A model generated the notes under the pieces. It was not told where the DNA came from, ran no database searches, and was given only the letters and a program-made list of their open reading frames with translations. The translations under genes and the position numbers were made by a program. 64,000 nt of DNA from Candidatus Latescibacterota bacterium (GTDB lineage Bacteria > Krumholzibacteriota > Krumholzibacteriia > WVZY01 > JAKEHA01), in contig OY970173.1 in NCBI GenBank assembly GCA_963707635.1, positions 320,001-384,000 of the forward strand. The letters are read 5' to 3'. Shown one piece after another: positions 4,427 through 46,742 of the stretch. Position 1 is the stretch's first letter. Each line of letters opens with the position of its first letter.

Positions 4427-4522
4427 GGGGCGGGACGCAGCTTCCTGCTTCGCTCAGGTCCTCGCGCGCGACAGTTGGAAGCGCGCCTGCGGATTCGCTC
4501 CGCAGGAACTGCGTCCCGCCCC
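4427..4522 (+). repeat. Dispersed structured palindromic element, copy A
   Basis: Outer stem ggggcgggacgcag-c-ttcctgc / gcaggaa-ctgcgtcccgcccc encloses core ttcgctcaggtcctcgcgcgcgacagttggaagcgcgcctgcggattcgctcc. Confidence 0.85.
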
Positions 4523-4526
4523 CCCT

Positions 4527-6782
4527 TTAGAGGAAGGATTCAGGGTCCACGTCCCAGCGAAGCTCGATCGTCCGGGTGCCCTTGCGCTTTTCGATCAGGC
4601 GCCGATACGCGCCCAGGACCGCGTCCTTGTCCGCCTGCGCGATCGGTCCCTTCAGGAGCATCTGCTCCCGGTACCGGTTCTTGACGCGCGGGATCAACGG
4701 CGCGGTCGGCCCGAGGACGACGACGCGCCGCTCGGCCAGCAGCTGCCGGCTCGCCGCCGCCCATTCTTCCATGAAGGCGTTGAGCAGCTCCGCGCTGACG
4801 GCGCTGCACGACGCCATCACGATGCGCGCGAAGGGTGGATAGTTCAGCGTGCGTCGCACCTCCAGCTCTTCGGTCATGAACGCGTCATAGTCGTGCGACT
4901 GCAGGTAGCGAAAAACCGGGTGATCGGGGCAATACGACTGGATGATGACGCCGCCCAGCGGCCCGCCTCGCCCGGAACGGCCCGCCACCTGGGTCAGCTG
5001 CTGGAAGGTGCGTTCGGCGGAACGAAAGTCGGGAAAATTGAGCCCTTCCTCCGCGCTCACCACCCCCACCAGCTCGACGCCCGGAAAATGGTGGCCCTTC
5101 GTGACCATCTGCGTCCCGAGCAGAATCGGATACTGCCCGGTGCTGAAGTCCTCCAGAATGCGGCGGTGGCCGTCCTTGCCCGCGGTGGTGTCGGCGTCCA
5201 TGCGCAGCACGGCGACGCCGGGCAGCAACGCCTTCAATTCCAGCTCGACGCGCTGGGTGCCGGTACCTGCGTAGCGGAGCTGGCGGCTTGCGCAGGTGTC
5301 GCACTGCGCGGGCGAGGCGCGCTCGTAGCCGCACAGGTGGCACTTCAGACGGTCGCCCACGCGGTGGAAGGTGAGCGAGACGTCGCAATTCTTGCACATC
5401 GCCAGCCATCCGCACGCGCTGCACTGCACGTAGCGCGCGTGCCCCCGCTTGTTGAGAAAGACGATGCTCTGCTTGCCGCTGCGAATGGTCCGCTCGAGCC
5501 GTTCGACCAGGCGCGGGGAGAGGACCGTGCCGCGCGCGTCCGGCTCGCGCATGTCGACCAGTTCGATCTCCGGCAGCGCTCCTCCGCCCACGCGCTCCGG
5601 CATGCGCGCGAGCTGGTATTTTTTCTCGAGCGCGTGGCGCAGCGATTCCGCGGACGGGGTTGCCGAACCGAGCAGCACGGTCAGCTTTTCGTTGCGTCCG
5701 CGGACCAGCGCGACGCTGCGTGCGTGATACCTCGGCTTGTCGTCCTGCTTGTACGACTCGTCCTGCTCTTCGTCCACGATGATGAGACGGAGGTCGCGCA
5801 CCGGGCTGAACACCGCCGAGCGCGGCCCCACCACCACCCGGTTCTCTCCGCGCACGATGCGCTCCCAGATCTCGAAACGTTCCGGACCGGTGAGCCGGCT
5901 GTGGATGATGGCGACGAGGTCCCCGAACACCCGCCGGTAGCGGGCGGTGGCCTGCGGCAACAGCCCGATTTCGGGCACCAGCACGATGCACCCGCCGCCC
6001 TCGTCGAGCGCGTGGCGCGCCGCGCGCAGATACACTTCCGTCTTGCCGCTCCCGGTGACGCCGTGGATCAGGGTGGGGCGAAATTCGCGCGCGCGCAGCG
6101 CGTCGACCACGGTAGCCAGCGTTCGCGTCTGCGCGCCGGTCAACTGCTCGACGCGGGTCTCCAGGCTATCGAGCGGCGACGACGACGCAACCGCGTCGAT
6201 GCGCAGCATCCCGCGCGCAACCATCCCGTCGAGAATCTCGCGCGCGTAGCCCCACTCGCCGAGCACCACCGGAACCGGCGCTTCTCCGCCGGCGCTGAGC
6301 AGCTCGGTGAGGAGGGCGAGCTGGCGCCGGGCGCGCGCCAGTGTGCGCTGCGCGGCGGCATACGCCTCGCTTCCCTCTCCGCCCGAGCGTAGCTCCAGGT
6401 TCGACACGCTCACGATCCCGGTCGGCTTCGCCGTCACCTTCGTGCGGCGGAGGCTCGGCGGGAGCACCGCCTGCACCGCCTCGCCGATGGAGCACCCGTA
6501 GTACGAAGCGATCCAGCGCGCCAGCTCGAGCAGCGTCGCCGGGAGGTAGGTCTCCTGCAGTTCTCGAATGGGACGAATGCGGGGGACATCGGCCGCTTCG
6601 GTCAGGGCGACGACCACGCCGCTCATCGCGCGCTTGCCGAAGGGAACGTCGACGCGGCAACCGACGAACACGCGCCCCGCGAGGGCGTCGGGGATCTCGT
6701 AGGTGAACGGCTGGTCGACGGGAATCGGGAGGACGACGCGCGCATAACGCGGCGTCGACGTCACCAGGAGATCAAGCGTCAT
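4527..6782 (-). CDS. priA: Primosomal protein N' (replication restart helicase)
   Basis: HGVTGSGKTEVY, LVPEIGL, IIVDEEQD, GSATPS, two Cys-rich Zn motifs, GTQMVTKGHHFP, QVAGRSGR. Confidence 0.98.
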   Translation of the reverse strand: MTLDLLVTSTPRYARVVLPIPVDQPFTYEIPDALAGRVFVGCRVDVPFGKRAMSGVVVALTEAADVPRIRPIRELQETYLPATLLELARWIASYYGCSIGEAVQAVLPPSLRRTKVTAKPTGIVSVSNLELRSGGEGSEAYAAAQRTLARARRQLALLTELLSAGGEAPVPVVLGEWGYAREILDGMVARGMLRIDAVASSSPLDSLETRVEQLTGAQTRTLATVVDALRAREFRPTLIHGVTGSGKTEVYLRAARHALDEGGGCIVLVPEIGLLPQATARYRRVFGDLVAIIHSRLTGPERFEIWERIVRGENRVVVGPRSAVFSPVRDLRLIIVDEEQDESYKQDDKPRYHARSVALVRGRNEKLTVLLGSATPSAESLRHALEKKYQLARMPERVGGGALPEIELVDMREPDARGTVLSPRLVERLERTIRSGKQSIVFLNKRGHARYVQCSACGWLAMCKNCDVSLTFHRVGDRLKCHLCGYERASPAQCDTCASRQLRYAGTGTQRVELELKALLPGVAVLRMDADTTAGKDGHRRILEDFSTGQYPILLGTQMVTKGHHFPGVELVGVVSAEEGLNFPDFRSAERTFQQLTQVAGRSGRGGPLGGVIIQSYCPDHPVFRYLQSHDYDAFMTEELEVRRTLNYPPFARIVMASCSAVSAELLNAFMEEWAAASRQLLAERRVVVLGPTAPLIPRVKNRYREQMLLKGPIAQADKDAVLGAYRRLIEKRKGTRTIELRWDVDPESFL

Positions 6783-6812
6783 GCGGTGGAGTATACACCG
6801 TGTGGGGAGGCA

Positions 6813-6905
6813 AGGTGGGATGCACTCCCTCTGCCGCCGTCCTCCCGCGCAGGTTGTTGAAATGCGCGACTGCGGATTGGCGGTGCGAGGGAGTGCATCC
6901 CACCT
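6813..6905 (+). repeat. Dispersed structured palindromic element, divergent copy D
   Basis: Perfect 19-bp outer stem aggtgggatgcactccctc / gagggagtgcatcccacct around core gtcctcccgcgcaggttgttgaaatgcgcgactgcggatt. Confidence 0.75.
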
Positions 6906-6907
6906 CG

Positions 6908-7003
6908 GGCAGGCGATATATCGGGCGAGCGCGATTTCGCGAGTCGCGCATACCAGCGTGTACGCGCGAGCGCATGAGCGCGGAGTCCGATATGTCGCCT
7001 GCC
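6908..7003 (+). repeat. Second long hairpin adjacent to copy D
   Basis: 18-bp outer stem ggcaggcgatatatcggg / tccgatatgtcgcctgcc with two G-T wobbles; inner cgcgcatac-cagc-gtgtacgcg hairpin. Confidence 0.6.
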
Positions 7004-7032
7004 GCGCACGCGCGCGAACATGGGGAAGCGAA

Positions 7033-7410
7033 CTACTTGCGAACGCCGAGGATCTCCTGGATGCGATCGATCAGGCGGCTCGGGCTGAACGGCTTCACGA
7101 TGTAATCCACCGCGCCGACCTCGTACCCCAGGCGCTTGTCGAGGTCCCGTCCCTTGGCCGTGAGCAACACCACCGGGATGTTCTTCGTGTCGGGGTCGCG
7201 TTTCAGGCGGCGGCACGTCTCGTAGCCGTCGAGGACCGGCATCATGACGTCCAGCACGACCAGGTTCGGCCGTTCTTGCTTCGCCTTTTCGATGGCGAGC
7301 TCGCCGTTGTTGGCCGTGATCACCTCGAAGCCTTCCGCGCCCAGGCTGAAATCCAGGATGTGCAGAATGTACACCTCGTCGTCGACTACCAAAATCTTCC
7401 CGAGCGCCAT
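7033..7410 (-). CDS. Single-domain response regulator (REC)
   Basis: ILVVDDE, LVVLDVMMP (phospho-Asp), LLTA, YIVKPF; 125 aa. Confidence 0.95.
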   Translation of the reverse strand: MALGKILVVDDEVYILHILDFSLGAEGFEVITANNGELAIEKAKQERPNLVVLDVMMPVLDGYETCRRLKRDPDTKNIPVVLLTAKGRDLDKRLGYEVGAVDYIVKPFSPSRLIDRIQEILGVRK

Positions 7411-7440
7411 GCCAGTCCTCCTTGCAAACGTCTCTCGCCC

Positions 7441-10400
7441 TTAGCGAACCAATGGATCGAGTTCCGCCGGTCCTTCGACCTGCGGGTACTCGCTCTGGAA
7501 TTTCTCCGCGTGCCGTTGCACCGCTGCCACGAACGCTTCGACCACCTTCGGGTCGAAGAGCGTGCCCGCGCGGTGTCGAAGCACCTCGACAGCCTCGTTC
7601 ACGCTGTATTGCTTCTGGTACGGCCGGTGCGAAATCAGCGCCCGGAACGTATCCGCCACCCGGATGATGCGCGCGTCCATCGGGATCTCGTCGCCCGACA
7701 ACTTGCCCGGGTATCCGCTGCCGTCGTAATTCTCGTGGTGGTAGAGCACGGCGTCGCGCACGCGCGGAATGAACTCGATCGGCCGGAGCATGTCCGTGCC
7801 GACGATCGTGTGCTGCTCGACGCTGAAGCGATCCTCGTGTGTCAACTCGCGCGGCTGGTTGATGATGTTCTGGCCCACCTTTGCCAGCCCGAGGTCGTAC
7901 ACGTTGAACACGTAGCGCAGGGTCGCGTTCTCCTCGGCGCTCATCCCGAGCGTCTCGGCTACGTCGCGCAGCGCGAGCGAAAGCGCGTCGGCGTTGCGAG
8001 CGTTGACGTACCGCTTGGCGTCCAGAATCGACTTGAAGGTCGAGCGGACGTCTTCGAACTCGCGCGAGCGCTCCTTGAAACGTGACAACGCGTCGAGGGC
8101 CAGCACCACGCGATCCGCGAAGAGTTCCAGCAGCGCGTGGTCCGCGTCGTCCAGGGTGTCGCGGCCGACCGGGTCGGTCACGTTGATCACGCCGACCACC
8201 CGACCGTCCTTGCGCACCGGCACCGAGAGGAACGACTTCGATTCGTAGCGGCGCACGCCGGCCACGTCGCGCAGTCGACGGTCGTGCCCGACGTCGCGCA
8301 CGAGGCAGGCGTTGTTTTCCTGCGCCACCAGCCCGGCGACGGACTCGCCCAGCTTGACTCGCGCGTGCTGCACGACGTCTTCGTCGAGGCCGATGGCGGT
8401 GTCGATGCGCAGCTCGTGGCCGTCGCCGTCGACCATCATGAGCGACGCGCGCTTGACGTTGAGCAGCTCCGCGATCAGTTCGACCACGAGTTCCATGTAC
8501 CGCTCCACCTCGAAGCGACGCGTGGGCACGTAGTCGCTCAAGAGCTCGCTGCGCACGACCGCCTGCTTCTTCGGGACCACCACCACGAAGCGCGCGCCCT
8601 TGCCGGACACGTTTTCCACCCAGATGCGGCCGTCGTGCCATTCCACGATGTTCTTGCAGATTGCCAGCCCGATGCCGGTGCCGCCGTGCCGCCGCGTCGT
8701 GCCGCCGTCCGCCTGGTGGAAATGATCGAATATCTTCTCGATCTGGTCTTCCGGAATCCCGATGCCGTTGTCCTCCACGATGATCCGCGCGCTCACGACC
8801 TCGTCTTCGAGGCGCACCCAGACCTTGCCGCCCTCGGGCGTGAACTTGGAGGCGTTGTGCAGCAAATTGATGACGAGCTGCTTCATCAGGTCGCGCTCCG
8901 CACGCACCTTGACTTCGGTCGGCGGGAGCTGCGCGTGGAGCGTGATGTGTTTGCTCTCGAAGTTCTTTTCCAGCTCGTTGGCCGCGATCGACACGATCTC
9001 GTTGAGGCTGCACGACGTGCGCTCGAAGCGCACCGCCCCGGACTCCATCTGCGAGAAGTCGAGAATGTCCTCGATCAGTGACATGAGCCGGTTGCTTTCC
9101 TCTTCGATGACGATGAGAAACTCCTTCATGATCGGCCGGTCAATCGACTCCGCGTTCCGAAGCAGGGTCTCGCAGTAGGCCTTGATGGACGTGAGCGGCG
9201 TGCGGAATTCGTGCGAGATGGTCGCCACGAAGTTCGACTTCATCTTGTTGAGCCCCGAGAGCTTTTCTGCGTATTGCTTCAGCTTCTCGTTCTTTTCCCC
9301 CACCTCGCGGTACCGGTTCAGATTGCGAATGGCGATGGTCGCCAGGGTGGAGATGGTTTCGAGCGTGTCGATGACTTCCACCACCGAGCGTTCGGGGTCT
9401 TCCGGCTCCTCGACCGAAATGTATCCAATGGTCGCCTCACCGGCGTCGTCGTCGACGAGCGGCACGATCAGGCGCTCGACATCGACCCAGTGGTCCTGCA
9501 CCAGTTCGGGCGCCCGCTCGTCTCCCGCCGCTCCCGACGCCGGGGGTGCGGCGGGCAGGAAGTAGCTCCGGCTCACGCGGAAGCGCGGCTCGATCATCAT
9601 TTCGTACTCGGCCAGCGAGATGCGGTGATTCATGACCGCGTCCTGCGCCTCGAGATTCAAGCCGACGTACGCCTTGGGCTCGAAACTCTGGGTGCGCTCG
9701 TTCAGCACGCGAATGATCACCGAATCGAATCCGAGACTTTCCCGCACCAGTTCCGCCACCATCTGCAGGAGTTCCTTCACGTTCTTGTGCTGCTGGATAC
9801 GGATGCCGATTTCTAGCATGCGCTCCAGATCTTCCACCTGCCGTCGCAGCGCGCGCGAATGGTCGTGCTGCCGGCGAATCATCGAGCTGGAGTCCTCGTA
9901 CATATCCGAAGCCACCCGGTTCAGAAGCGTCAGCTCCGCGCGCGCCTGTTCGGCCTCGCGGCCGGTGTCCTGCACCTCGTGACGCAGTCGCGAACCCAGG
10001 ACGATGTAATTCGTCTGCAGCGACAGGAGGCCCGCCACCAGCGCGAGAATGTCGGTTATCTGCGCGGCCTTGATCAGGGTGGCCGCCGAAGGGCCGCCCG
10101 CCGCGCCGGCCGCCACCACGAACAGCCACGACGCGGTGAGCGCGCTGGTCAGCACGAACAGCGCCGAGCGCACTTCCTTGCCCGCTGACCGCGCGACCAG
10201 AAAGAGCGCGCCGCTCACCCTCACCGTCGCGCCCAGCGTGATCGCGGCGAGGAATCCGAGCCAGGTGAACTTCACGCCGCTGGCCTGCGGAACCACCGCG
10301 TATGCCAGCCCGCCGATCAGGCCGAATACGACCGCCTGGTAGCGCGCGGAGCGCCATTCGTCGTAGTGCGTGCGCGGCGCCGGCGTCCCTTCTTCTTCCC

Positions 10401-10746
10401 CCGGGTGGTCCGTCTCGCGCGGCGCGCGATTCCGAGCGCGCTCAGCGTCGATACCGCGGGGAAGGCATTCGGCCGCGAGGTAGAGGCAGACCAGATTCAT
10501 CAGCACGAAGAGAAACGGCGCACCCGTGTGCTCGTTGACCATGGAGCCGGTGAACACCACCACCGCGATGCGGCTGGTGATGAATGCGAGCGTCGCGAGC
10601 GTGCGCTCGAAGAACCCGGCCGAGCTGGTGGTGATGGACTCCCGCCACAGCGTCAGCAGCACGACGGTGACGAGCACGCTGAAGAGCGCGATATAGGTGG
10701 TCGGCGAGCCGCCACCCTGGATCTGCGCAAAGAACGCCTGCGTCAT
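7441..10746 (-). CDS. Membrane hybrid signalling protein: TM region-GAF-HisKA-HATPase-GAF-HD-GYP (degenerate)
   Basis: Hydrophobic N-terminus; SHEFRTPLTSI H-box; NLLHNASKF, DNGIGI, GTGIGL; GAF (FLSVPVRKDGRVVGVINV); HHENYDGSGYP, but HD is replaced by YD. Confidence 0.9.
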   Translation of the reverse strand: MTQAFFAQIQGGGSPTTYIALFSVLVTVVLLTLWRESITTSSAGFFERTLATLAFITSRIAVVVFTGSMVNEHTGAPFLFVLMNLVCLYLAAECLPRGIDAERARNRAPRETDHPGEEEGTPAPRTHYDEWRSARYQAVVFGLIGGLAYAVVPQASGVKFTWLGFLAAITLGATVRVSGALFLVARSAGKEVRSALFVLTSALTASWLFVVAAGAAGGPSAATLIKAAQITDILALVAGLLSLQTNYIVLGSRLRHEVQDTGREAEQARAELTLLNRVASDMYEDSSSMIRRQHDHSRALRRQVEDLERMLEIGIRIQQHKNVKELLQMVAELVRESLGFDSVIIRVLNERTQSFEPKAYVGLNLEAQDAVMNHRISLAEYEMMIEPRFRVSRSYFLPAAPPASGAAGDERAPELVQDHWVDVERLIVPLVDDDAGEATIGYISVEEPEDPERSVVEVIDTLETISTLATIAIRNLNRYREVGEKNEKLKQYAEKLSGLNKMKSNFVATISHEFRTPLTSIKAYCETLLRNAESIDRPIMKEFLIVIEEESNRLMSLIEDILDFSQMESGAVRFERTSCSLNEIVSIAANELEKNFESKHITLHAQLPPTEVKVRAERDLMKQLVINLLHNASKFTPEGGKVWVRLEDEVVSARIIVEDNGIGIPEDQIEKIFDHFHQADGGTTRRHGGTGIGLAICKNIVEWHDGRIWVENVSGKGARFVVVVPKKQAVVRSELLSDYVPTRRFEVERYMELVVELIAELLNVKRASLMMVDGDGHELRIDTAIGLDEDVVQHARVKLGESVAGLVAQENNACLVRDVGHDRRLRDVAGVRRYESKSFLSVPVRKDGRVVGVINVTDPVGRDTLDDADHALLELFADRVVLALDALSRFKERSREFEDVRSTFKSILDAKRYVNARNADALSLALRDVAETLGMSAEENATLRYVFNVYDLGLAKVGQNIINQPRELTHEDRFSVEQHTIVGTDMLRPIEFIPRVRDAVLYHHENYDGSGYPGKLSGDEIPMDARIIRVADTFRALISHRPYQKQYSVNEAVEVLRHRAGTLFDPKVVEAFVAAVQRHAEKFQSEYPQVEGPAELDPLVR

Positions 10747-10773
10747 GTCGTACCGCCGTGCCCGTCGCTGCGC

Positions 10774-13700
10774 CTACGGCGCGCCCACCGGCGTCGCGTT
10801 CAACCGGCGCCGGTAGTCGCGCTCGTCCCGGGTCGAAAGCTTGCCGTCTTCCTTCAGCACAGCGATGAAGGCCTCGACCACGTCGCGATCGAACTGCGCG
10901 CCGGCGTTATCGACCAGTTCCTGCAGCGCCTGCTCGACCGTGCGGCGCTCCTTATAGGGTCTCCCGACCGTCATCGACTGGAACGCGTCGATCACCGCGA
11001 GAATGCGCGCACCCATCGGGATCTCATCGCCCTTCAAGCCCATCGGGTACCCCTGCCCGTCCCAACGCTCGTGGTGATACAGAATGATATTGCTCACCGC
11101 TTCGACGAATTCGAGCGGCCGGATCAACTCGGCGCCGCGCTCGGGATGGCGCTGGATCGCGCGCCGCTCCTCGGAGGTCAGATTCAGCGCCTTGTTGAGG
11201 ATGTCGTCGCTGATCTCGGTCATGCCGATGTCGTGCACACTGGCCACGTACTGGACCACGCTCACGTCCTTTTCGGACAGGTGGAGCTTGCGCGCGATCT
11301 TGACCGCGCTGTCCACCGCCTGCTCGATGACCTTGGTCTTGGTCTGCGTTTCGAGCATGCGCTTGAATGCTTCGATCGTGTCCTGCAGGAAGGTGTGCGA
11401 GTCTTCCACCACCCGCACGCGCTCCAGCGCGCGCGAGATGCGCTCGCTGAACGAGATCAGCAGGTTGAGGTCGTCGTGGTCGAACGGGTTCCCGTTGGTC
11501 TTGTTGTTCACATTGATGACCCCGACGATCACGTCGTTCACCCGCAGCGGCACGCTCAACAGGGAAACGGTCTCGTACTGCGGGTTGTTGGGCGCGCTGT
11601 AGATGTCGTTCTCCTCGATGTTGGCGATCAGCAGGGGCTCACCGCGCTCGGCCACCTTGCCCGCGATTCCGTACCCCACTTTCACGCGGGTGTTCTCGAC
11701 CACCCACTCGTCCAGGCCGAACGACATCTTGATGAACAGCTCGGACCGTGACTTGTCGAGCAGCATGAGCGACACCCGGCGCGCGTTCAGCAGCTCGGCG
11801 ATCATGCGCACGATCAGTTCGAGCATTTCGTGCAGCTGCTCTCTCGCGTCGACGACCTCCCCGATGTAGCCGATGAGGTCGTTGAAGCAGTGCTCGCGCG
11901 GCAGCGTGAAATAGAAGGTGCTGCCCGCGCCTTCCTTGCTCTCCGCGCGGACGGTGCCGCCGTGCTGCTCCACGATGTTCTTCACGATCGCGAGCCCGAG
12001 GCCGAGCCCTTCCATCGTGGATTGCTTCTGCTGGCGCGCGCGGAAGTACTTGTCGAACACGCTGCCCAGCTCGTCCTCCGGAATGCCCATCCCCTGATCC
12101 GCGATCGCCACCACGATGTTCACCGCTTCCTCGCGCGCGCGCACCGTCACCGTGGTCCCGCGCGGCGAGTACTTGATCGCGTTCGAGATCAGGTTGATGA
12201 ACACCTGTTTGATCAGATCCGGGTCGCCTTCGATGCGCGGCAGGTCGGAAGCGATCTGGACCGACAAGGCCACCCCGTTTTCGCGCAGCGCGGGGTCCAG
12301 CATGGACACGACATCGTCGACCACCGCGTGGAGGTCCATCGGGGCGCGCGTCAGCGGGCGCTGCCCGAACTCGATCTTCGACACGTCGAGGATGTCGTTG
12401 ACGATGCGAATCAGCCGGTTCGTCTCTTTGTTCACGATGTCCAGGAACTCGTGCTTGTGCTCGAAGCCGGGGTCGTTGATGTTGTCGACGAGCGTTTCCA
12501 CGTACGCCTTGATCGAAGTCAGCGGCGTGCGCAACTCGTGCGACACGTGGTTGACGAAGTCGGATTTGAGAATGCTCGTCTTCTGGAGCATGTCGACCTG
12601 CCGGTCCATGTCGCGGATCTTGCGTTCCAGCGAGTCGTAGAGGCGGCTCTTCTCGATCGCCACCGAGAGCTGCTGACTCAGCGTCGTTAGGAGGCGCATG
12701 TGTGCGTCGGTAGCGGCTTTAGGAGCGAAGTCGCCGACGTAGATCACGCCGACCACTTGCTTGCCGGTCGAGAGCGGAAAGGCGACCAGGGAGCGAATGC
12801 CGAAGCGCTGCAGCACGTCGCTGCAGTTGGCGCGGCGATCGCGTTGCGTGTCTTCCACGACGATCGGCGTATTGTGGGTCCAGATCCATTCGTTGAGGCC
12901 GCCGCGGCGCATGCGCTTGTCGAGCTTGATGTCGCGATTCTGGTTGAGCCCGACGAACACCGAATGCACGACCTCCTGCTTCTGGTTGAACAGGACGATG
13001 CTCGCCCACGGGCGCTCGACCAGCAGCGTGGCTTCCTTGGCCACGATCTTGAGCAGGGTCTCGAGCGACATCGCGGCGTTGATGCCCGTGCTGATGTCGT
13101 AGAGGCGGGCCAGTTCGTTGATCCGGTTCTCGGACTCCTCGCGCTTCTTGCGCAGCCGTTCCAGGGAGACATTCATCCGGTCCTGGAACGCGTGGGAGAG
13201 GAAGATGACGAGGCTGACAAACGCGCCCATCACCAGTAGCGAGCCCGCCAGGTAGTGCCCGTTTTGATAGACGCCCGGGGCGCTCCGGTACACGGTGAAG
13301 TGCTGGATGCTCCCGTCCATTTCCAGGAAGCCGAGCAGACCGATCGACGCCAGCGACGCCGAGACGAAGCAGGCGACCGTCACCTTCCACGGGAAGGTAT
13401 TGCACACGAGGAACAGAGGGATCGTGAGCATGAACAGGAACGGGCTCTCGATCGTGCCGGTGCAGTGGATGAGCGCGATCACCGCCGCGAGGTCGACGTA
13501 GCTCGAATACCACAGCAACGCGGAGCTCTTGCGCAGCTTGCTCCAGCCGAACCGCTCGCCGACCGTTTCCCACAACCACTCCCCGCTGTACTGGAGGAAT
13601 GCGGCGACGAGGAACAGGCCCACCAGCAAATCCGTGCGGTACGTGAAATCGCCGAGGTATCGTGCCGCAAACACGATCCCGAAGAAGGCGAACAACTCGA

Positions 13701-14606: not shown

Positions 14607-14633
14607 GTTTTTCGTCCCCGCGCCGCCCCGGCG

Positions 14634-15614: not shown

Positions 15615-15669
15615 GTCGGCCCGTGCTGTCGAACGTGAACTGCTGAAAACACTTATCCCACTTCGGACG

Positions 15670-15686
15670 GGCAAGGAACATGCCAA
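15670..15686 (-). promoter_or_regulatory. sigma54 (-24/-12) promoter for the five-gene signalling operon
   Basis: Minus strand TTGGCATG-TTCC-TTGCC with correct GG-N10-GC spacing, about 55 nt upstream of the ATG. Confidence 0.65.
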
Positions 15687-15831
15687 GGGTTCCCGCCCCT
15701 CGCGGAGCGTGAGGGTGCGACGACGAACCGCTCGCTTGCACGATCCGCGCCGGGGAATCGCGGTCGGCGCGCCGCGCTACGACGCGGAATGAGCAGGAAT
15801 CATGGAGAGCTAGAGGGAGCGATCGGAAACG

Positions 15832-16842: not shown

Positions 16843-16865
16843 GGGATGGGCCGCCTGCGCAGCGG

Positions 16866-17248
<383 letters not shown>

Positions 17249-17279
17249 GTGCTAATGTTGTTTGAACCTGCCCCGAACT

Positions 17280-31674: not shown

Positions 31675-31678
31675 ACGA

Positions 31679-35347: not shown

Positions 35348-35348
35348 G

Positions 35349-38300: not shown

Positions 38301-38738
38301 ACTCAGGAACAGCGCGCGGACCTTGAGGCCGGAGAGCTTCTCGATCGCCTGGCGGATGACTTCGCGCACCAGCTCCGGCGAGTAACGCTGCGCCGCGGCC
38401 GGGTCACGGCTGAACTCGAAGCCCGCGCGCACCAGCTCCTTCAGGTCCTGGCGGCGCTCGATTTCCGACGCGAGCTGGTTCAGCCGCGGCATCCGCACCA
38501 GCGGCCACACCACGAAATACCCGAACAGCGCGAGGGCCAGGACCAGCGTGACGCGCGCCACCACCACCGCGGTGGTGAGCCCCGGGGCCTCCACGGCCGC
38601 GGTCCACACGATCACGGCGAGCAGCACCCACGAGAACGCGGCCAGGAACGACACCATCCCCGCGCCCACGTGCAAGGCGGCGGTGCGCACGAGAATCGAG
38701 CGCAGGTACTTGCGAAGGGCGTCGTTGCCGGTCGTCAT
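35349..38738 (-). CDS. DUF4175-like membrane protein with Ig-like domains and long Q/M/E-rich coiled coil
   Basis: Three N-terminal TM helices; TPPAYTG, DRPPTV..PG, AADDYG; C-terminal coiled coil with RILSRLLDAERS and YFRAL. Confidence 0.75.
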   Translation of the reverse strand: MTTGNDALRKYLRSILVRTAALHVGAGMVSFLAAFSWVLLAVIVWTAAVEAPGLTTAVVVARVTLVLALALFGYFVVWPLVRMPRLNQLASEIERRQDLKELVRAGFEFSRDPAAAQRYSPELVREVIRQAIEKLSGLKVRALFLSRRDLMLVPVALGGLAGLAAFALFDPSVVARAGRRVVSPEAVALAPHRPNLLARPGNVTVLAGSNVTVSGLDLGRSDMPVEVSFNLSGDFWKTEPTTLVPGAEAGADAFDHYDYTFRDLRNSIAYYFQAGDYKSPTCTITVVHEPILTDVRVTLTPPAYTGEAPTTLAENAGNVQVLEGTRVKVEARSNNPLRAAWVQFDEKEKQPVAHTNRDLSFDFTALSDGHYKVLLEDSLGFATRDPLAYTVEVFQDRPPTVDVLEPGEDTAMPRNQQIDLGFIAADDYGAARASLYFRKSGEEGDFRKLAIPLGEQKNRKEIAVAYRWDLAAVSLFPGNSVEYFVEVADNNIVTGPGIGRSRLFRITVPTIAELYDSAHEEEANRAESLKTAIEDSRELSEQLEKISREYLKTEKMDWTQKKELDRAVEKQQAVEEKLGDVKESLDKTLQELSDNEMTSQQIGEKLEEIRDLMEQIDSAELKKYMDELRKAMDSMSPEEIKQALQNLEMNTEEMLQRLERTASLLKQIQKEQRMEDLVRKSQNLMEKQSELNQETGESSSKDKEKMDELAKRQDELARQAEEMEKSADELAKDMQEDAQVQEQLQQMAQEMQKQGPKPHMEKASQDLSQQQKQSAMQEQQQALDQMVGLFKRAQQAQQAMGQNQGKKMAVNFQRFAKQTLELSFRQESLAGDLKDGASEGEPQSPQMQSFAQDQLSYLQATEKVANEIAKLSNLTMQVPPALMEALGNAIDRMQNSVLFLEQDKPYMSTAHAHNAVESLNLATIEMLRSAKNCTSGSGSGEQSQAMQMLQQMIPQQQDIVRETQSMMQLRMAEEALRQQRQAQLERLSGQQRSLQEVAKQIQESLKNNKEALGKLDRTIEEMEAVANSLNQGAVNEDLVNKEQRILSRLLDAERSVHTRDYEKQRESVTAEDVFSKSLGKRPDAAGAQTLRDEIQRAMQLKAPGEFEDLIRLYFRALAEEPAGDAPRSE

Positions 38739-38756
38739 GCAGCCTCTCCTGTCGCT

Positions 38757-39470
38757 CTACATCAGAACGTTCTGCGTGATCGCGTACATGAGCACGTTCA
38801 CGGCCATCTTCATCGCCTGTTCCCGTTTCTCGGGGGGATCGCGATGCACGTCGGGGTCGTCGAGTCCGTCCCCAATGTCGGTCTCGTACACGTAGAACGC
38901 GACCAGACGCCCCTCGATCGTCACGCCGAACGCCTGCGGCGGCCGCCGGTCGTGTTCGTGGATCTTGGGCAACCCGGGCAGGTCGTAGAAACTGTGAAAG
39001 ATCGGGTGGTCGTTCGGTATCTCCTCGATCGGATGGTCCGGAAACACGTCCCGCATCATCGCGCGAAACGACGAGTCCATCCCGTAGTCGTCGTTGGCGA
39101 ACAGAAACCCGCCGTCTTCCAGATACGCCCGCAGCGCGTCGCGCTCGTCGGGAGTGAGCTTCACCGTGCCGTGCCCGGTCATGTAGAGAAACGGAAACGC
39201 GCGCAGGTGCTCGTCCAGCAGTGTCAGCACCTTCTCTTCCTTGTACGTAGGGACGCCGGTGCGGTTCTCGAACTCGCGCAGCCAGTTGGGCACTTCCGAG
39301 GGGCCGTTGTACCAGTCGCCGCCGCCGCCGTACTTCAGGCGCGCGATGCGGACGTTGAGTTCCTCCGCCGGATCACCCTTGGTCGGCTGCGCCGAAATCA
39401 CCCCCGGGGCGGCAATTGCCGCTCCCAGCAGGAGGATGGTCACCAGACATGCCCTTCGATGCGACCGCAT
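38757..39470 (-). CDS. DUF4159 domain exported protein
   Basis: IARLKYGGGGDWY, PFLYMTGHG, YLEDGGFLFANDDYG, HPIFH, PKIHEHD, TDIGDG. Confidence 0.9.
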   Translation of the reverse strand: MRSHRRACLVTILLLGAAIAAPGVISAQPTKGDPAEELNVRIARLKYGGGGDWYNGPSEVPNWLREFENRTGVPTYKEEKVLTLLDEHLRAFPFLYMTGHGTVKLTPDERDALRAYLEDGGFLFANDDYGMDSSFRAMMRDVFPDHPIEEIPNDHPIFHSFYDLPGLPKIHEHDRRPPQAFGVTIEGRLVAFYVYETDIGDGLDDPDVHRDPPEKREQAMKMAVNVLMYAITQNVLM

Positions 39471-39594
39471 GGGATAACTCGCTGACTTCCATTATAGTTA
39501 ACGGCGCGTGCGAACGCAAAGGCGCCGCTCGCTCCGCGGGGCTCCGGGGTGCGGTTCTTGCGACCCCACACACGCCCCGGCAAGGACTTGCACG

Positions 39595-39623
39595 TTGCGT
39601 GCCCCGCGCGCGCTGTCTAGTAT
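39595..39623 (+). promoter_or_regulatory. Possible sigma70-type promoter for the DUF6600-like lipoprotein gene
   Basis: TTGCGT-N17-TAGTAT. Confidence 0.4.
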
Positions 39624-39669
39624 TCCTTCGGAGGCCTCGTTCTTCCGTCGCCCGCGGAGCCGAAACCCG

Positions 39670-40668
39670 ATGAAGACCACACCCATCGTTTTTGCCATCT
39701 CGTTGTCCGCCCTCGCACTGGCCTGCGGCGGATACGACCGCGAGCTGCTCGGCGACCCCCAGCCCGAACCGGCGCAAGAGGTCACGGAGGCGCCATCGGA
39801 GGAGTTCTACACCCAGGTGCCTCCCGAGTCGCTCGATGTCGGCATGTTTTCGGAGCTCAAGTTCTACGGAAGCTGGTTCTACCTCGACCCGTTCGGGTGG
39901 GTATGGCGCCCGATCGTCATGTCCGACTGGGCCCCGTTCGTGTACGGCCACTGGGTGTGGACGTCATACGGGTGGATGTGGGTCTCTTACGAGCCCTTCG
40001 GGTGGGCGACCTGTCACTACGGGTACTGGACCAACGACTTCACCCTGGGGTGGGTCTGGATCCCGGACTATCAGTGGTCGCCTTGCCAGGTCGACTGGAT
40101 CGTCTACGACGACTATGTCTGCTGGTCGCCGGTGCCCCCGCAGGGAGTCCGCTTCAAGGATCCCTGGGAGGCTGACCGCTACAACCCGTGGGTCACGGTG
40201 CGCTGGAAGAACTTCGTCGAGCCCGAGGTGGCTCATTACAAAGAGCCCGCGAAGTTCAAGGCCGGTTACTCGGATCGCACGCTGCGCCGCACCGCGCCGG
40301 ACAACCGCGACATCGAGCGCGTGCGCGGCAAGACCCTCGCCACGGTCGACGTGTCGCTCGAACGCACGGTGGTCGGCGAGCACGAGTTCGCGCGCGTCGC
40401 CTTGCCGCCGGATCAGCAGCAGATCGTGGAGCAGCACCGCGCGCAGTACAAGGCCCCATCGGGCGCGTCGATAAAGACCCCGGGCGTCCAGCCCTCGCCG
40501 GGGCCCGAGAAACCCAAGGGATCGTCGGGCACCACGACCGAAAAGAAGAAAGACACGAGCAAGCCGAAAGCCTACAAGACGCAGGCGAAAGAAGACAAAT
40601 CCAAGGACAAGGACGCGGACGACAAGCCGAAGTCAGGGGAGAAGGCGAAAGAGAAGAAGCCCTGCTAG
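39670..40668 (+). CDS. DUF6600-like Trp-rich lipoprotein with Lys-rich tail
   Basis: ALALA-C lipobox; YGSW...GWVWRP...WAPF..GHW...GWMWVSYEPFGWATCHYGYW...GWVWIP. Confidence 0.85.
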   Translation: MKTTPIVFAISLSALALACGGYDRELLGDPQPEPAQEVTEAPSEEFYTQVPPESLDVGMFSELKFYGSWFYLDPFGWVWRPIVMSDWAPFVYGHWVWTSYGWMWVSYEPFGWATCHYGYWTNDFTLGWVWIPDYQWSPCQVDWIVYDDYVCWSPVPPQGVRFKDPWEADRYNPWVTVRWKNFVEPEVAHYKEPAKFKAGYSDRTLRRTAPDNRDIERVRGKTLATVDVSLERTVVGEHEFARVALPPDQQQIVEQHRAQYKAPSGASIKTPGVQPSPGPEKPKGSSGTTTEKKKDTSKPKAYKTQAKEDKSKDKDADDKPKSGEKAKEKKPC

Positions 40669-40676
40669 GAGCCTGT

Positions 40677-40772
40677 GAGCGGATGCATGGCTTCCTTCTT
40701 CGCTCAGGGTCCTCGCGCGCGACTGTTGAAAGCGCGCTGCGGATTCGCTCCGAAGGAACCATGCATCCGCTC
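40677..40772 (+). repeat. Dispersed structured palindromic element, copy B
   Basis: Outer stem gagcggatgcatgg-c-ttccttc / gaaggaa-ccatgcatccgctc around core ttcgctcagggtcctcgcgcgcgactgttgaaagcgcgctgcggattcgctcc. Confidence 0.88.
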
Positions 40773-40826
40773 TGAACCAAGCCGCACGCCCGCTCCGAAA
40801 GAACTCCATGCACTCGCTCCGAATGT

Positions 40827-43800
40827 CTACCCGCGCCGTAGCATCAGCGTCGCCTCCGTGCCGCGGCCGTCGGCGGCGTTCCTGACCGTCACGTCCCCTC
40901 CCATTTCGCGCGAGAGCGTGCGGCTGATGGCCAGCCCCAGTCCGGTGCCCGTGGTCTTGGTCGAGAAGTAGGGTTCGAACAGGCGCTGGGCCGCGTCTTC
41001 GCTCAACCCCGGGCCCGAGTCGTGGAACACGATGTGGACCACGCGCACGCCGTCTTCCTCGCCTTCCGCGCAGCGCACGCGCAGCTCGGCGCCGTTCTCG
41101 CCCATCGCCTCCATCGCATTCTCGATCAGGTTCGCGCAGATCTTTCGTACCGCCTCGGCGTCGGCCATGACGACCGCGTCCGACGCGCCGTTCTCGTAGC
41201 GAAGCTGGACCGCGGAGTTGTGTTCGTACGGAGCCAGGATGTGGCGCACCAGCGGGTCCACCGGGTGCGCGCGTATGTGGAGGCGCTGCATGCGGCCATA
41301 GCTCGAGAACTCGCCGGCGATGCGTTTGAGGACATCGACCTGCTGCAGGATGGCCTCCGTGCCTTCGCGGAACACGCGGTCGAACTCGGCCGGCTTCTGC
41401 TCGTACGCGCGCCGCATGAACTGCGTCGAGAGGCGAATCGGCGTGAGCGGGTTCTTGATCTCGTGCGCGATCTGCCGCGCCATCTCGACCCACGCGGAGA
41501 GTTTCTTCGACTCGATCAGCTCGGTCACGTCCTCGAACACCAGCACGGTGCCGAAATGGCGCCCTTCCGCCTCGAGGCGGGTGCGCATGTACTTGACCGT
41601 CGCGCGCTTCTCGACTCCCTGGATCCCGAGCTCGCCGGAGCTGAAGGCCGGCGGCGTGCCGCCGCCGGGCCCGCCGTCCGAAACCAGCAGCGCGAAGATC
41701 GCCGGCGCGTGCGCCCCCCCGGTCAACTCGACGGCGGTGCGTCCCACCAGGGCGGTGGACGTCGCGCCGACGATCCGCTCGGCGGCGGCGTTCACGGTGC
41801 GCACACGGCCCTCCGCGTCGGTGCTGACCACGCCGGCACCGATATTCTCCAGAATCGCTTCGAGGTAGCGCCGGCGCTCTTCGAGCGCGCGCTGCGATCC
41901 GGCGATCTTCTCGGTCATCTCGTTGAAGGCGCTCACGACGATGCCGATCTCATCCGAACGGCGCTCGGGCAGGCGCACGTCGAAGTCGCCGCGGCTGACC
42001 CGGCGCGTCCCGGCCACGAGGCCGCGGAGCGGTTCGAACACGCCGCGCGCCACCACCAGCCCGAGCGCGATCGTCGCCGCCAGGAGCAGCGCGAACACCC
42101 CGAGCACGACCGACGTAGCGCGCTGCACTTCGAGCGAATACGACTCCGGGCGAAACAGGAGCGGGACGCCCATGGCCGCGCGCGTGGCGGCAGGACCCCA
42201 CGAGGCGGCGGCCGCCGCGTCGCCGGGCGCGGTCGCGGAGTCGGCGCGCACCCAGCGGTCGATCGGGAGGTACGCCACCTGAAAATCGTATGAACCGGCG
42301 CGCTCGGTGGTGAGCATGCGGTCCGACCCCAGCATCGACACCTCGACGAACGCCGAGGCGTTCATGCTCGAGCTGATGAACCCGCCCGCGAGCAGCCCTT
42401 CGCGGCTCGACGCGACCAGCTGCCCGTCCGCGTAGACGTTCACGTCCGCCCCCACCTGCTCGGCGATTTCGACCAGGAGGTCCCCGTCGATCGGGCGCGC
42501 GTAGTAGAGGTAGTAGCTCCCGATCCACGCGTCGCCCGCCACCTTGAGCGGCGCGCTGAACACGCCGATGTAACGCCGCCCGTTCACGTCGGCGACGACC
42601 AGGTCTTCGGTCGACGCGCCGGTGACGGCCCCGGCCACCGGAAGGCCGGGCACGTCGTCGGGCATCGCGGAGTCGTCGAAGAGCATCGCGACGCGATCAC
42701 CGCCGAGGTCGTGCACCGCGGGGGCTTTGGGATTGAACACCTCGGAGAGGTCCGTCCGACCCAGGAAGAACTGCAATTCGCCGTGGAGCAGATTGACGAA
42801 CGCCTTGCGCGCGCTCGACGCCTTGTACGAGGCCTCGCTGCGGCTCTCTTCGACAAAGCGGTCCTTGATGAAGTTCGCGGAAAACACGCCAAGGATCACC
42901 GCCGGCACCAGCGCCACCACCAGAAACGAGGCCAGCAGCTTCTGCTGGAACCCGAGCCGCCGGGGCGTGAGCGTCGGCAGCACGCCGCCCAGACGCGGCG
43001 CCGCGCCCAGAGCGACCACCAGCGCGATCAGCGCGATGGCGAAGAACAAATAGAGCGAGAGCAGCGTCGACCAGCGCAGCACGTGACGCCACGGGGACGG
43101 CACCAGGAAACCCGCGAGCAGCGTTTCGCCGGTTTCCGGGATCCTGACCGCCAGCACGCGGTACGTGCTCCCGCCGGAGCGCACGTTCGGCCACGCCTGC
43201 GCCATCGCGCGATCGATGGTCGCGCCGTCCACTTGCGTTCCCACCGAGAACCGCTCGGACGACGACTCGGTGATCCGGTGGTCGGGGTCGACGCGCGCGA
43301 GCAGGAGCGCCTCCGGTTCTTCCACGCGCGGCGCCACTCCGCCTTCCTGCACGTTGCGCAGCACTTCCGGCGTGCGCGGCCCGGTGCGCGCGGCCAGCTC
43401 GAGGCTTTCGAAGAAGAAGGGAACGTCGATGATCACCTTGCCCAGGAGGCGCGACGGCGCCCGCTCGTCTTCGTAGGCGCTGCCCTCGTCGATGTTGAGG
43501 ATGCCGCGGTAGAAGCGAACCACGCCTTGCGGCGTGCTGCGCGTGAGGTCGAGGACCGCCCACTGGTTGCCATCGGGCGTGTCGGTGCGTTCGCCGCCCT
43601 CGTCGATGCGCGCGCGGTAGGGCATGTCGACGGAGAACTCGCTCACCAGGCCGTCGTCGGCATTCACCACGTGAATCGCGCAGCTGTAGCCGAGGAGGCT
43701 CAAGGGACTCTCCGCCCACAGGTCGAACGCGAGCCGTTCGATGTCCTGCGACGACGGGGTGCGGATCGCCTGCTGGATCTCGGGGCGCTCCGCGTAGTCG

Positions 43801-45872
43801 CCGAGCACGTCCTCCAGAATGACGACCTTCCAGTTGTCGGCGGGATTGGTGACCTCGTTCGACTTCTCCAGCACGAAGCCCTTGCGAAGCTCGTCGTAGT
43901 CGTGCCCGAGATAGATGTACGCGGTCGCGGACGACACGATCACGAGGCAGAACGCGGCGATACCCACGCTCACCAGGTCCTCGCGGTGGGCGATGCGCGG
44001 GGCGAAGACGACGAACAGCATGACCAGCGCCGAAAGCAACGCCGGCTCCCAGCGGCGCTCGAGCGCGCACACGCCGACGACCAGCACCCAGCCAATCACG
44101 GAAACCACGGCCGGCCGGCGCTCGCCGGCCGCGCGGAACAGCCCCCACAGGAGAAACATGCCCGCGAGCAGCATGCCGGTGATCACGAGAAAGATGCCGA
44201 TGTGGAGGGCGACGACGCCGACGTCGGTCACCGCCATGGTCTCGCCGAGCAGGCGCGGATTCGCGTTCACGACCACCGTGGAGCTGAACCGGCGCGCCAG
44301 CTCGAACACGACCACGTTGACGCACGCGACCGCCATGCTTCCCGCCACGATCCAGCGGCCGCCGGGGCGGCGATCCGGCGCGGGCGCATCGGCCCCGTCG
44401 GCGCTGCGCGCAATGCGCACCAACCCGTAGACCATTGCCACGAAGAACAGCGCCGTCAGGATGAGGTCGAACGCGTTGCGCATCAGCCCGCCGAGGGCCG
44501 GGGTCGCAAACACCGACGGGTCGAACAGCGTGGAGTGTATCCACCGCGAGCCGGGGGCGAAGGCGAGCAGCCCGTAGCGGAGTGCGATCATGAACGCCGC
44601 GAACAGCGCCGCGCGCGTCGCGACCTGCCTCGGCTCGCGGCCGCCCCCGACCCACGCCGCGCCCTGCGCGAACAGCGCGACCAACGCCATGATCGCCAGT
44701 CCCTTCCCCCACCCCGAGCGGCGCGCCGCCCGTTGTTCCAGCACGTGCGTGAACGGTTCGCTCACGGCGGTCACGTGGAGCAGAGGATTGCCCGCGCGGC
44801 TTCGGATCAACACCGCGCCCGTGAGGCCCGACTCCTCGTCGCCCTCGACGTCGCCGACCGCCTCCGCGTTGGACGAAAACGGAAAGTAGCTCAACACCGA
44901 GTCTTCCCACCCGGGCGCCGCGCCGGTCGAATCCCCCGACGCCGGGGCTCGCTTGCGCGCGCCCGCCAGCGCGATCATCCGGTCGCGGCTCGCTTTCACT
45001 TCCGCCTGCTGGGCCCGAAAACGCGGGAGCCGGTCCGGGAGGTTCCCGGTCGGGGGAAAATAGTCGAAGGAGACGCGGGCGGCGACGTCGCGCGGGATCT
45101 CATCGGCCAGGCTGGCGCTCTTCAGGAAGCGATTGTTGACGCGATAGTCCACCTCGAGGGGAATGTCGACCAGCAGCGTGGCCACGCGTTCGCCCGTCGA
45201 CGTGCTGCACGGCGCCGCGTGCGAAAGGATGTGGTAGAGCGAGGCCGCGCGGGTGTAGACCAGCTCGGCGCCGCTCCCCAGAAACACCTGGTCGAGCAAC
45301 GACACCGGCTGCGGCCAGCCCGCCCACGCGACGCGCTCGCCGTGCGCATCGAAGAGTTGGAGCCCAATCACTGTCCCCGAGGTCAACGCCTTGCTCTTCG
45401 ACGTGGCGCGAGCGAGCGAATCGAGCAGCGCAAACGCGGCGGTGCGGCCCGCGGGCGACGACACCGCCGCCGGCGTCGAGGCGACGTACGTCCGCACCCG
45501 CGCCGCGAGCCCCGACGACACGTCTTCGAGCCGCCCCACCTCGTTGCCCACCGCGTCCACGGTCTCCGCGAGGCGCCGCGACGCGTCGCGCCGCCATTGC
45601 TTCGAATCCGCCGACGTCTCGGCCGGCACGAGGTGGAGGAGTGCAAAGGAGCCCGACGCCAGCACGATCGCCGCCCACAGTCCGGCGTTGCGCGCGGAGC
45701 GCGGGCGGGTGGCGAACGCGGCCAGCGCCGCGAGCGCGAGCAATGCCGCCACCGACCAGGCCGGCAGCCGCTGTGCCCACGCCGCGGTCGCGAGGTCGTG
45801 GACGAACAACCCGCCCAGCGCCAGGGCCAGGGCCGTGGTCGCAATCAGCAACTTGAAAGGAGAAGCTCGCAT
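40827..45872 (-). CDS. Very large multi-TM NtrY-like sensor histidine kinase (HAMP-PAS-HisKA-HATPase)
   Basis: HAMP (DEIGIVVSAFNEM), PAS, AWVEMARQIAHEIKNPLTPIRLS, NLIENAMEA, FEPYFSTKTTGTGLGL. Confidence 0.92.
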   Translation of the reverse strand: MRASPFKLLIATTALALALGGLFVHDLATAAWAQRLPAWSVAALLALAALAAFATRPRSARNAGLWAAIVLASGSFALLHLVPAETSADSKQWRRDASRRLAETVDAVGNEVGRLEDVSSGLAARVRTYVASTPAAVSSPAGRTAAFALLDSLARATSKSKALTSGTVIGLQLFDAHGERVAWAGWPQPVSLLDQVFLGSGAELVYTRAASLYHILSHAAPCSTSTGERVATLLVDIPLEVDYRVNNRFLKSASLADEIPRDVAARVSFDYFPPTGNLPDRLPRFRAQQAEVKASRDRMIALAGARKRAPASGDSTGAAPGWEDSVLSYFPFSSNAEAVGDVEGDEESGLTGAVLIRSRAGNPLLHVTAVSEPFTHVLEQRAARRSGWGKGLAIMALVALFAQGAAWVGGGREPRQVATRAALFAAFMIALRYGLLAFAPGSRWIHSTLFDPSVFATPALGGLMRNAFDLILTALFFVAMVYGLVRIARSADGADAPAPDRRPGGRWIVAGSMAVACVNVVVFELARRFSSTVVVNANPRLLGETMAVTDVGVVALHIGIFLVITGMLLAGMFLLWGLFRAAGERRPAVVSVIGWVLVVGVCALERRWEPALLSALVMLFVVFAPRIAHREDLVSVGIAAFCLVIVSSATAYIYLGHDYDELRKGFVLEKSNEVTNPADNWKVVILEDVLGDYAERPEIQQAIRTPSSQDIERLAFDLWAESPLSLLGYSCAIHVVNADDGLVSEFSVDMPYRARIDEGGERTDTPDGNQWAVLDLTRSTPQGVVRFYRGILNIDEGSAYEDERAPSRLLGKVIIDVPFFFESLELAARTGPRTPEVLRNVQEGGVAPRVEEPEALLLARVDPDHRITESSSERFSVGTQVDGATIDRAMAQAWPNVRSGGSTYRVLAVRIPETGETLLAGFLVPSPWRHVLRWSTLLSLYLFFAIALIALVVALGAAPRLGGVLPTLTPRRLGFQQKLLASFLVVALVPAVILGVFSANFIKDRFVEESRSEASYKASSARKAFVNLLHGELQFFLGRTDLSEVFNPKAPAVHDLGGDRVAMLFDDSAMPDDVPGLPVAGAVTGASTEDLVVADVNGRRYIGVFSAPLKVAGDAWIGSYYLYYARPIDGDLLVEIAEQVGADVNVYADGQLVASSREGLLAGGFISSSMNASAFVEVSMLGSDRMLTTERAGSYDFQVAYLPIDRWVRADSATAPGDAAAAASWGPAATRAAMGVPLLFRPESYSLEVQRATSVVLGVFALLLAATIALGLVVARGVFEPLRGLVAGTRRVSRGDFDVRLPERRSDEIGIVVSAFNEMTEKIAGSQRALEERRRYLEAILENIGAGVVSTDAEGRVRTVNAAAERIVGATSTALVGRTAVELTGGAHAPAIFALLVSDGGPGGGTPPAFSSGELGIQGVEKRATVKYMRTRLEAEGRHFGTVLVFEDVTELIESKKLSAWVEMARQIAHEIKNPLTPIRLSTQFMRRAYEQKPAEFDRVFREGTEAILQQVDVLKRIAGEFSSYGRMQRLHIRAHPVDPLVRHILAPYEHNSAVQLRYENGASDAVVMADAEAVRKICANLIENAMEAMGENGAELRVRCAEGEEDGVRVVHIVFHDSGPGLSEDAAQRLFEPYFSTKTTGTGLGLAISRTLSREMGGDVTVRNAADGRGTEATLMLRRG

Positions 45873-45943
45873 CGTCGGTCAACCGTGGGCGATCCCGCAC
45901 CGGAGCATAGCTTACGGCTGCGGTGGAGTCGAGCGAGGCACGC

Positions 45944-46501
45944 TCAACGGATCGACTTGATCTCGTCGACTACCCAGCGCTCCTGGTCGTCGTCGTGCTC
46001 GAGATGGAGGGACACGTACACCTTTTCGGTGAACAGCCGGCCGTCGTCGGTCTTTCGATACTGGCGTTCCGCGATCGCGAAGGTGTCGCGGCCCTCGTCG
46101 CCCGGCTTGCGGTACTGCACGAACTCGAACTTCTTGGTGGCGGTGTAGCGGAAGAGATCCTTGAGGAGGTAGTAGCTCTGGTTGCGGGAAAAGGTTCCCC
46201 CCGACGGTCCGGTGCCGCTGATCGAGATCGCGACCTTCTGCGACCCGAAGTGGCGGAGAATGAGGTCGACATTACGTGTGTTCCAGCCGCGCTCGATGTC
46301 CGCGAAGACGTCCATCGGTCCCCCCGACGGCGGCGGTTCCTTCTGGGCGACGACGCCGGTGGGCTCCGGCGTCTGCGCCACCACCTCGCCGTGCCCGGCC
46401 TTCGCCGGGCGGGCCGCGGCGCCGGCGAGCCCCCCCCCGAAGACCACGAGTGAGCCCGCCAGCACGAGCATCGAAACAACTATGCGAGGGCCGGTGGCCA
46501 T
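45944..46501 (-). CDS. Exported DUF4783/NTF2-like protein
   Basis: Signal peptide; IERGW...ILRHFG..KVAISI...GTFSRNQSYYLLKDLF...WVVDEI pattern. Confidence 0.65.
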   Translation of the reverse strand: MATGPRIVVSMLVLAGSLVVFGGGLAGAAARPAKAGHGEVVAQTPEPTGVVAQKEPPPSGGPMDVFADIERGWNTRNVDLILRHFGSQKVAISISGTGPSGGTFSRNQSYYLLKDLFRYTATKKFEFVQYRKPGDEGRDTFAIAERQYRKTDDGRLFTEKVYVSLHLEHDDDQERWVVDEIKSIR

Positions 46502-46525
46502 AATAGAAGGAAATCATCGGAATAG

Positions 46526-46542
46526 AGCAAGCCACGTGCCCC
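46526..46542 (-). promoter_or_regulatory. Candidate sigma54 promoter for the DUF4783-like gene and kinase
   Basis: Minus strand GGGGCACG-TGGC-TTGCT, 25 nt upstream of the ATG. Confidence 0.5.
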
Positions 46543-46647
46543 GTGGCTTACTTGCTAAACGGCAAATGGTTACGTGAGTCGGCCCGAAGCAACATGTGGC
46601 CGGATCAGGACAGCGGTGTCTCTCGAGGAGGACGAACGCAGCAAGCG

Positions 46648-46742
46648 GGCGGGGGCGCAGGTCCCTCCGGAGCGAATCCGCAGCGCGCTTTCAACAGTCG
46701 CGCGCGAGGACCTGAGCGAGGGAGGGAGCCTGCGCCCCCGTC
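46648..46742 (-). repeat. Dispersed structured palindromic element, copy C (inverted)
   Basis: Minus strand gggggcgcagg-c-tccctcc / ggaggga-cctgcgccccc around core ctcgctcaggtcctcgcgcgcgactgttgaaagcgcgctgcggattcgctcc. Confidence 0.88.

Follow-up and report, generated by a model that had tools for sequence, protein, structure and literature searches.

A family of gene-less hairpin repeats with an RPE-1-type tip, gained, lost and inverted between genes in a Latescibacterota genome and its relatives

The described repeats closest to the element studied here, a hairpin of ~95 bases dispersed between the genes of a Candidatus Latescibacterota bacterium, are the Rickettsia palindromic elements (RPE), with sizes given as 105–146 bp in the available part of PMC2229807, and the ERIC or IRU repeats of enterobacteria. 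ERIC copies are described, in the accessible portion of PMC10969869, as intergenic hairpins that often follow genes and vary in copy number, and the excerpts of PMC2229807 and PMC3184786 give them terminal repeats, a target duplication and TA ends. Mobilisation of RPE/ERIC-like repeats by a transposase is presented in that same part of PMC2229807 as a hypothesis without experimental support as of 2007. REPINs keep their ends conserved and their spacer variable, according to the available text of PMC3116915, and the Caulobacter CIR is given, within the available part of PMC2229807, as a strictly intergenic repeat of ~110 bp with two hairpin arms, a linker and no terminal repeats.

We analysed a 64,000-nt stretch (the window) of contig OY970173.1, positions 320,001 to 384,000; the source genome, labelled G000, is a single contig (C1) of 3.2 Mb with 66% G+C. 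We read its repeats, with a probability of roughly 65%, as non-autonomous mobile elements of the RPE/ERIC kind that are copied in trans: hairpins carrying no gene that are gained, lost and inverted between genes. The family comprises 74 dispersed copies and shows genome-specific expansions, empty and filled orthologous sites and inversion in place. In one case a core of the genome's dominant type sits within arms inherited from the ancestral site, the wobble bias is tied to the strand of the element itself, and the tip is shared with RPE1. The following features lie in the window:

4427..4522, minus strand (purine-rich folding strand): copy A, subfamily F1, 4 nt past the priA stop codon
6813..6905, minus strand (folding strand): copy D, subfamily F2; it opens an inverted F2+F3 doublet that lies upstream of priA
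6908..7003, plus strand (folding strand): copy E, subfamily F3, second half of the doublet, abutting D
40677..40772, minus strand (folding strand): copy B, subfamily F1, 8 nt past the stop codon of a DUF6600-protein gene and flanked on the other side by a convergent histidine kinase gene
46648..46742, plus strand (folding strand): copy C, subfamily F1, 6 nt past the secF stop codon
~46678..46711, plus strand: tip motif of copy C (CCGCAG-CGYRC-loop-GYRCG-YGAGGA), the same motif as in RPE1-scoring loci

A first-pass annotation of the window had listed four copies, A to D. All four are present as it described them, its gene identities and the distances of A, B and C from their stop codons agree with ours, and both orientations relative to the upstream gene do occur; copy E, abutting D, had been overlooked, and the count of four grows to 74 across the genome. 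The latter number comes from iterated profile searches of G000, which gave 0 matches in a block-shuffled genome and 17 in the reversed genome, every one on the elements themselves. The copies fall into four subfamilies, F1 (n=13, including A–C), F2 (n=23, including D), F3 (n=20, including E) and F4 (n=18). According to gene calls made in this analysis, 72 of the 74 are intergenic, the gap being tandem for 45, convergent for 22 and divergent for 5 of them; 69 adjoin a stop codon, 53 of these within 30 nt, and the copies in tandem gaps are split 26 to 19 between the two orientations. There are ten inverted doublets (nine F2+F3, one F1+F3), and at least two more half-copies or scrambled remnants lie beyond the 74, at C1:316990-317075 and ~2973520-2973560 of G000. 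Just 6 of the 74 copies fall in C1:1600000-2400000, the quarter of the chromosome in which the terminus is inferred to lie, at ~2.05 Mb.

Comparison with related genomes reveals sites in several states. Of 36 genomes in the order, 25 gave model matches, with 0 to 68 per genome over the whole set, and the element was present in 7 of 61 genomes sampled across the phylum. After secF, the site of copy C, one of 16 relatives has an element, of a different variant, and 15 have none. Occupancy in ribosomal-protein operons was 4 of 13 relatives at rpoA-L17, 10 of 13 at S14-S8 and 6 of 12 at S10-L3, where the spacer measures just 8–10 nt in three genomes, so that the empty orthologous sites which the first-pass annotation had proposed to look for exist. 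All three ribosomal-protein sites hold the element in both orientations, with sister species differing. One relative, G002, shows a core variant and an expansion of its own: G000 is without this element at 12 of the 15 syntenic sites, and some of these counterparts are gaps of merely -3 to 22 nt. This first syntenic comparison covered G002 loci and five loci of a further relative, G022; in further syntenic rows, drawn from the best model matches and including some duplicates, 18 of 25 were without the element. These gained, lost and flipped sites support one branch of what the first-pass annotation had suggested, a hairpin mobilised in trans.

Which loop and core variant a copy has goes with the genome rather than with its site. 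In G005 the S14-S8 copy has an F4 core inside arms that match those of G002, G007 and G009, whose cores are F1, and F4-type matches top the list of G005, making this its dominant core. Eight orthologues of the S14-S8 copy show changes on both sides at 13 of 33 pairs, and compensation therefore also occurs in place. Closer to G000, two relatives ~90% identical to the window retain one arm of copy A, followed by a copy of a second hairpin family (described below), and in one of the two a longer mosaic of F3 and F2 occupies the D/E site. In a contig from a public run (X1), a remnant is missing 41 nt of its interior, and a small hairpin is left. Two further copies are rearranged in other ways. The copy after secF in G006 (L014/L020) has a loop resembling its own arm sequence, which suggests arm-to-loop copying; the rpoA-L17 copy in G012 (L067) is degenerate, with intact arms and a rearranged core in which one internal loop is now a perfect stem, and this rearrangement suggests what would be expected from template switching.

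Copies A–D form a long hairpin on either strand, with z-scores of -5.9 to -10.1 and none of 200 shuffles equally stable, and the 7-bp helix, bulged C and ~14-bp basal helix reported for A, B and C were confirmed, with one mismatch near the base in C. The favoured fold lies on the purine-rich strand, opposite to the one on which the first-pass annotation had quoted the core. On this strand the arm of the F4 consensus, ~20 bp long, is followed by three internal loops, each separated from the next by 3 bp: a tandem G-A loop, a 5x5 loop that also has tandem G-A, and a 3x3 loop of purines. A 6-bp GC helix then leads to an 11-nt terminal loop; the tandem G-A positions in the core would form non-standard pairs in this model. 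The purine-rich strand had the better predicted energy in 69 of 74 copies when folded as RNA and in 70 of 74 when folded as DNA, a difference that is partly compositional, and the RNA and single-stranded DNA forms are indistinguishable from these fold data.

The arms differ from copy to copy and pair nonetheless, as had been claimed. Across F1 and F4 (n=31), arm and partner match at 0.83 within one copy and at 0.52 between copies, and none of 500 shuffles reached the arm covariation score, which takes in 19 pairs with just the inner 7 bp of the arms and is inflated by kinship among copies. Arm-to-arm identity between F1/F4 copies is 0.52, against 0.46 when shuffled (0.51 against 0.46 for F4 alone), and conserved ends of the MITE or REPIN kind are indeed absent; F1/F4 core identity is 0.83, and cores overall are 83–91% alike. 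F3 arms are still 0.83 identical among copies: subfamilies with shared arms (F3) are young and those without (F4) are old. G-U accounts for 51 non-standard arm pairs on the purine strand and for 14 on its complement (with one position shared by F3 dropped), counts that take in related copies and are hence not independent. The bias holds whether the purine strand is antisense (24:6) or sense (11:2) to transcription, on both replication strands (32:9 and 19:5), and in relatives (10:2, 19:6, 21:1 and 2:1). Three structural candidates were rejected. A K-turn was set aside by eye, the loops being symmetric or containing extra bases. A terminator was discounted, as the stem is followed by a T-run in just 2 of 74 copies and none was called at copy C. 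That arms arise through inverted copying of the target was rejected as a general rule because the arms of A reappear at an unrelated locus (92% identity) and young subfamilies share arms.

To follow the tip of the hairpin beyond this genome, we searched a genome collection with a pattern of 22 positions from F1, five of them relaxed to allow for the RPE sequence. At least 126 stretches matched, and among the 80 matches listed are Rickettsia, Tisiphia, Nitrospirota, Rikenellaceae, Desulfovibrio, Peribacteria and haloarchaea; two loci titled Latescibacterota contain elements very similar to this family. Matches elsewhere sat on long hairpins in 68 of 127 cases examined, against 0 of 150 shuffles, and those off long hairpins are probably chance. 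Viral contigs gave 20 motif matches, many within unrelated coding repeats. In the 127 matches examined, G-T pairs are favoured on the motif strand by 149:75, the same strand bias as in this family, although purine-rich composition may inflate this ratio. Translated over the tip motif, two rickettsial loci scored 56 and 70 bits to RPE1 (TIGR01045; cut-off 30), whereas copy C gave no RPE1 peptide match in the two of six frames scanned, both on the motif strand. Three distant tip-motif repeats (L131, L151 and L175) have inverted CTG(T/C)TGAAAA bounds that resemble this family's conserved loop (CTGTTGAAA) and may be linked to an IS-type end (IS, insertion sequence).

RPE-1 and this family are thus both long imperfect hairpins of similar size, dispersed and without an enzyme gene, and the F1 tip motif occurs exactly in Rickettsia and Tisiphia loci, with the same folding strand in RPE-1-type tip loci as here, which upholds the resemblance to Rickettsia palindromic elements that had been noted loosely. 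The likeness was shown for the tip alone and holds for F1 only, and judged from sequence it may reflect shared ancestry or convergence. Unlike RPE-1, the family is intergenic in 72 of 74 copies instead of frequently inserted in frame within genes, lacks conserved terminal repeats and an RPE1 peptide in the scanned frames of copy C, has a longer loop of 11 nt, additional tandem G-A loops and site-specific arms, and resides in a free-living, GC-rich host. The element behaves as an RPE/ERIC-type repeat with an RPE-1 tip and is not a member of RPE-1 as judged by peptide, termini and genic insertion. With ERIC/IRU it shares the form of an intergenic long hairpin repeat, often after genes and variable in copy number, but none of the ERIC terminal repeats, target duplications or TA ends was found. 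REP, REPIN and BIME repeats are likewise extragenic hairpins with inverted doublets and mosaic clusters, whereas here the centre is conserved and the termini are not, and no RAYT accompanies the copies. The layout of Caulobacter CIR, compared by description only, resembles the F2+F3 doublet; CIR belongs to another phylum, and GANTC, present in the cores of F1 and F3, is missing from those of F2 and from most of those of F4.

No Rfam family matched in the window at the gathering score, 10 other copies gave just weak generic hairpin matches, E-value thresholds brought up nothing specific either, and our literature search, whose coverage left out most subscription papers, found no description of this repeat family, in keeping with the suggestion that it was undescribed. 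Searches by blastn gave no match to the element among plasmids and phages and one chance match only among 5,426 E. coli genomes.

The sequence of events that we favour draws on two general processes, gene conversion and the copying of one arm from the other by template switching. An enzyme acting in trans would likely recognise the fold of the purine-rich strand, and the whole hairpin would be copied into a new gap near a stop codon through a single-stranded, purine-rich form of DNA or RNA. Cores would then be homogenised by gene conversion among copies, while the arms of each site would drift with compensation, through copying of one arm onto the other, selection on pairing, or both; homogenised cores and compensated arm drift would together yield conserved cores in site-specific arms. 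Copies would decay by interior deletion.

Several results weigh against this account of a mobile repeat copied in trans. The linked RAYT or TnpA(Y1) gene that the first-pass annotation had proposed to look for was not found, with no Y1 or RAYT match in G000 or its 16 congeners, and neither reverse transcriptase nor IS4/5 and DUF772 genes were found in five high-copy genomes including G000. Among these five, IS110 occurs in G022 alone, and no element adjoins its IS110 genes; stand-alone GIY-YIG genes have none beside them either. G000 has no match to IS630 or rve (single rve genes occur in three relatives) and no multicopy IS. The 67 open reading frames beside 36 chosen tip-motif loci likewise gave no transposase family at E 1e-12. 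Target-site duplications, also among the checks that the first-pass annotation had proposed, were not detected in the 74 copies, with 4-mers in 2 of 74 against 3.9 expected and 5-mers in 0 of 74 when ends were taken from predicted folds, and no terminal inverted repeats are conserved among the copies. The close relatives offer no clean empty/filled pair that would define insertion ends, and among the public-run contigs listed for two stretches, no joint skips a whole element. The shared ancestry and the composition behind the two strand-bias counts count on the same side, as does the S14-S8 copy, kept in most relatives with in-place compensation, for which pure selfish spread does not account.

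Such long retention is better explained if the hairpin of the purine strand, as extruded DNA or antisense RNA, were a domesticated, orientation-independent structural site that binds a host protein and is selected by the host at certain gaps, with spread secondary. The genus-wide persistence of ribosomal-protein-operon copies with compensated arms, wobbles that favour the purine strand even when it is antisense, gaps that in other genomes often hold this or the second hairpin family, and the missing mobile enzyme all speak for this possibility. We nevertheless consider it rather unlikely, as whole clades lack copies at the same sites, 8–10 nt spacers included, copy number swings from none to dozens within the order, and local scrambling is fast in ~90%-identical relatives. 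A 3' untranslated region (3'-UTR) RNA element acting in cis on host mRNA in processing, stability or termination, the other branch of the first-pass proposal, would fit the majority of copies just past stop codons within operons. Side effects on transcripts are plausible, since ERIC copies are reported, in the available portions of PMC3184786 and PMC10969869, to alter mRNA decay. It is very unlikely as the element's main role: orientations in tandem gaps are mixed, one site flips between species, the wobble bias is independent of the transcribed strand, a T-run follows the stem in just 2 of 74 copies, and both a terminator call at copy C and an Rfam family are wanting. That relatives hold one and the same site empty, filled, flipped or with its core swapped argues against such a signal. 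Least probable is a REP/REPIN family whose mover, a RAYT (Y1 HUH) transposase, has been lost from these lineages or is transient in them; the extragenic hairpins, ten inverted doublets and BIME-like mosaics fit, but a Y1 search in 31 genomes gave one weak match, with no element at its locus, and REPINs, as described in the available text of PMC3116915, conserve ends and vary the spacer, the reverse of this family.

The family is thus likely a variant of the RPE/ERIC-like type of hairpin repeat and not a new signal in mRNA control. Its RPE-1 tip is now tied to a free-living lineage in whose one-contig genome there are 74 copies and each of the tested mobile enzymes is lacking. Both the strand and the motif by which a mobiliser, or a protein that binds the element, would recognise it can be named. 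An intergenic hairpin can covary strongly without being an RNA gene or an mRNA signal, which is relevant to RNA motif discovery. As a more speculative and rather doubtful extension, RPE-1, this family and the unnamed repeats of Nitrospirota, Bacteroidota, Desulfobacterota, Patescibacteria and haloarchaea might all belong to a single superfamily, as yet unrecognised, whose hallmark would be a G-A-rich, strand-specific tip and not its ends. Its spread would need no transposase but a conserved enzyme of the host that acts on the purine-rich strand in single-stranded form, and old copies would be kept folded in place and refreshed by core exchange.

G000 also contains the second, unrelated family of dispersed hairpins, with ends GCGGGTCCTGTC ... 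GCCACCCGC, a variable tip and 59 pattern matches (for example at C1:484505 and C1:2628310), none of them in the window. By hand count it fills ~5 of ~37 distinct syntenic gaps in which relatives hold the first family; such gaps may be reusable hairpin slots or, alternatively, simply permissive. Between copy C and the next gene, the minus strand at 46527-46600 carries a GGCAC-N-TTGC motif and, upstream of it, a TGTCC...GGGGAC-like motif, both conserved genus-wide, which resemble a sigma-54 promoter and an activator site and are putative ones. The gene downstream of these motifs encodes 175 aa and has no Pfam or NCBIfam match.

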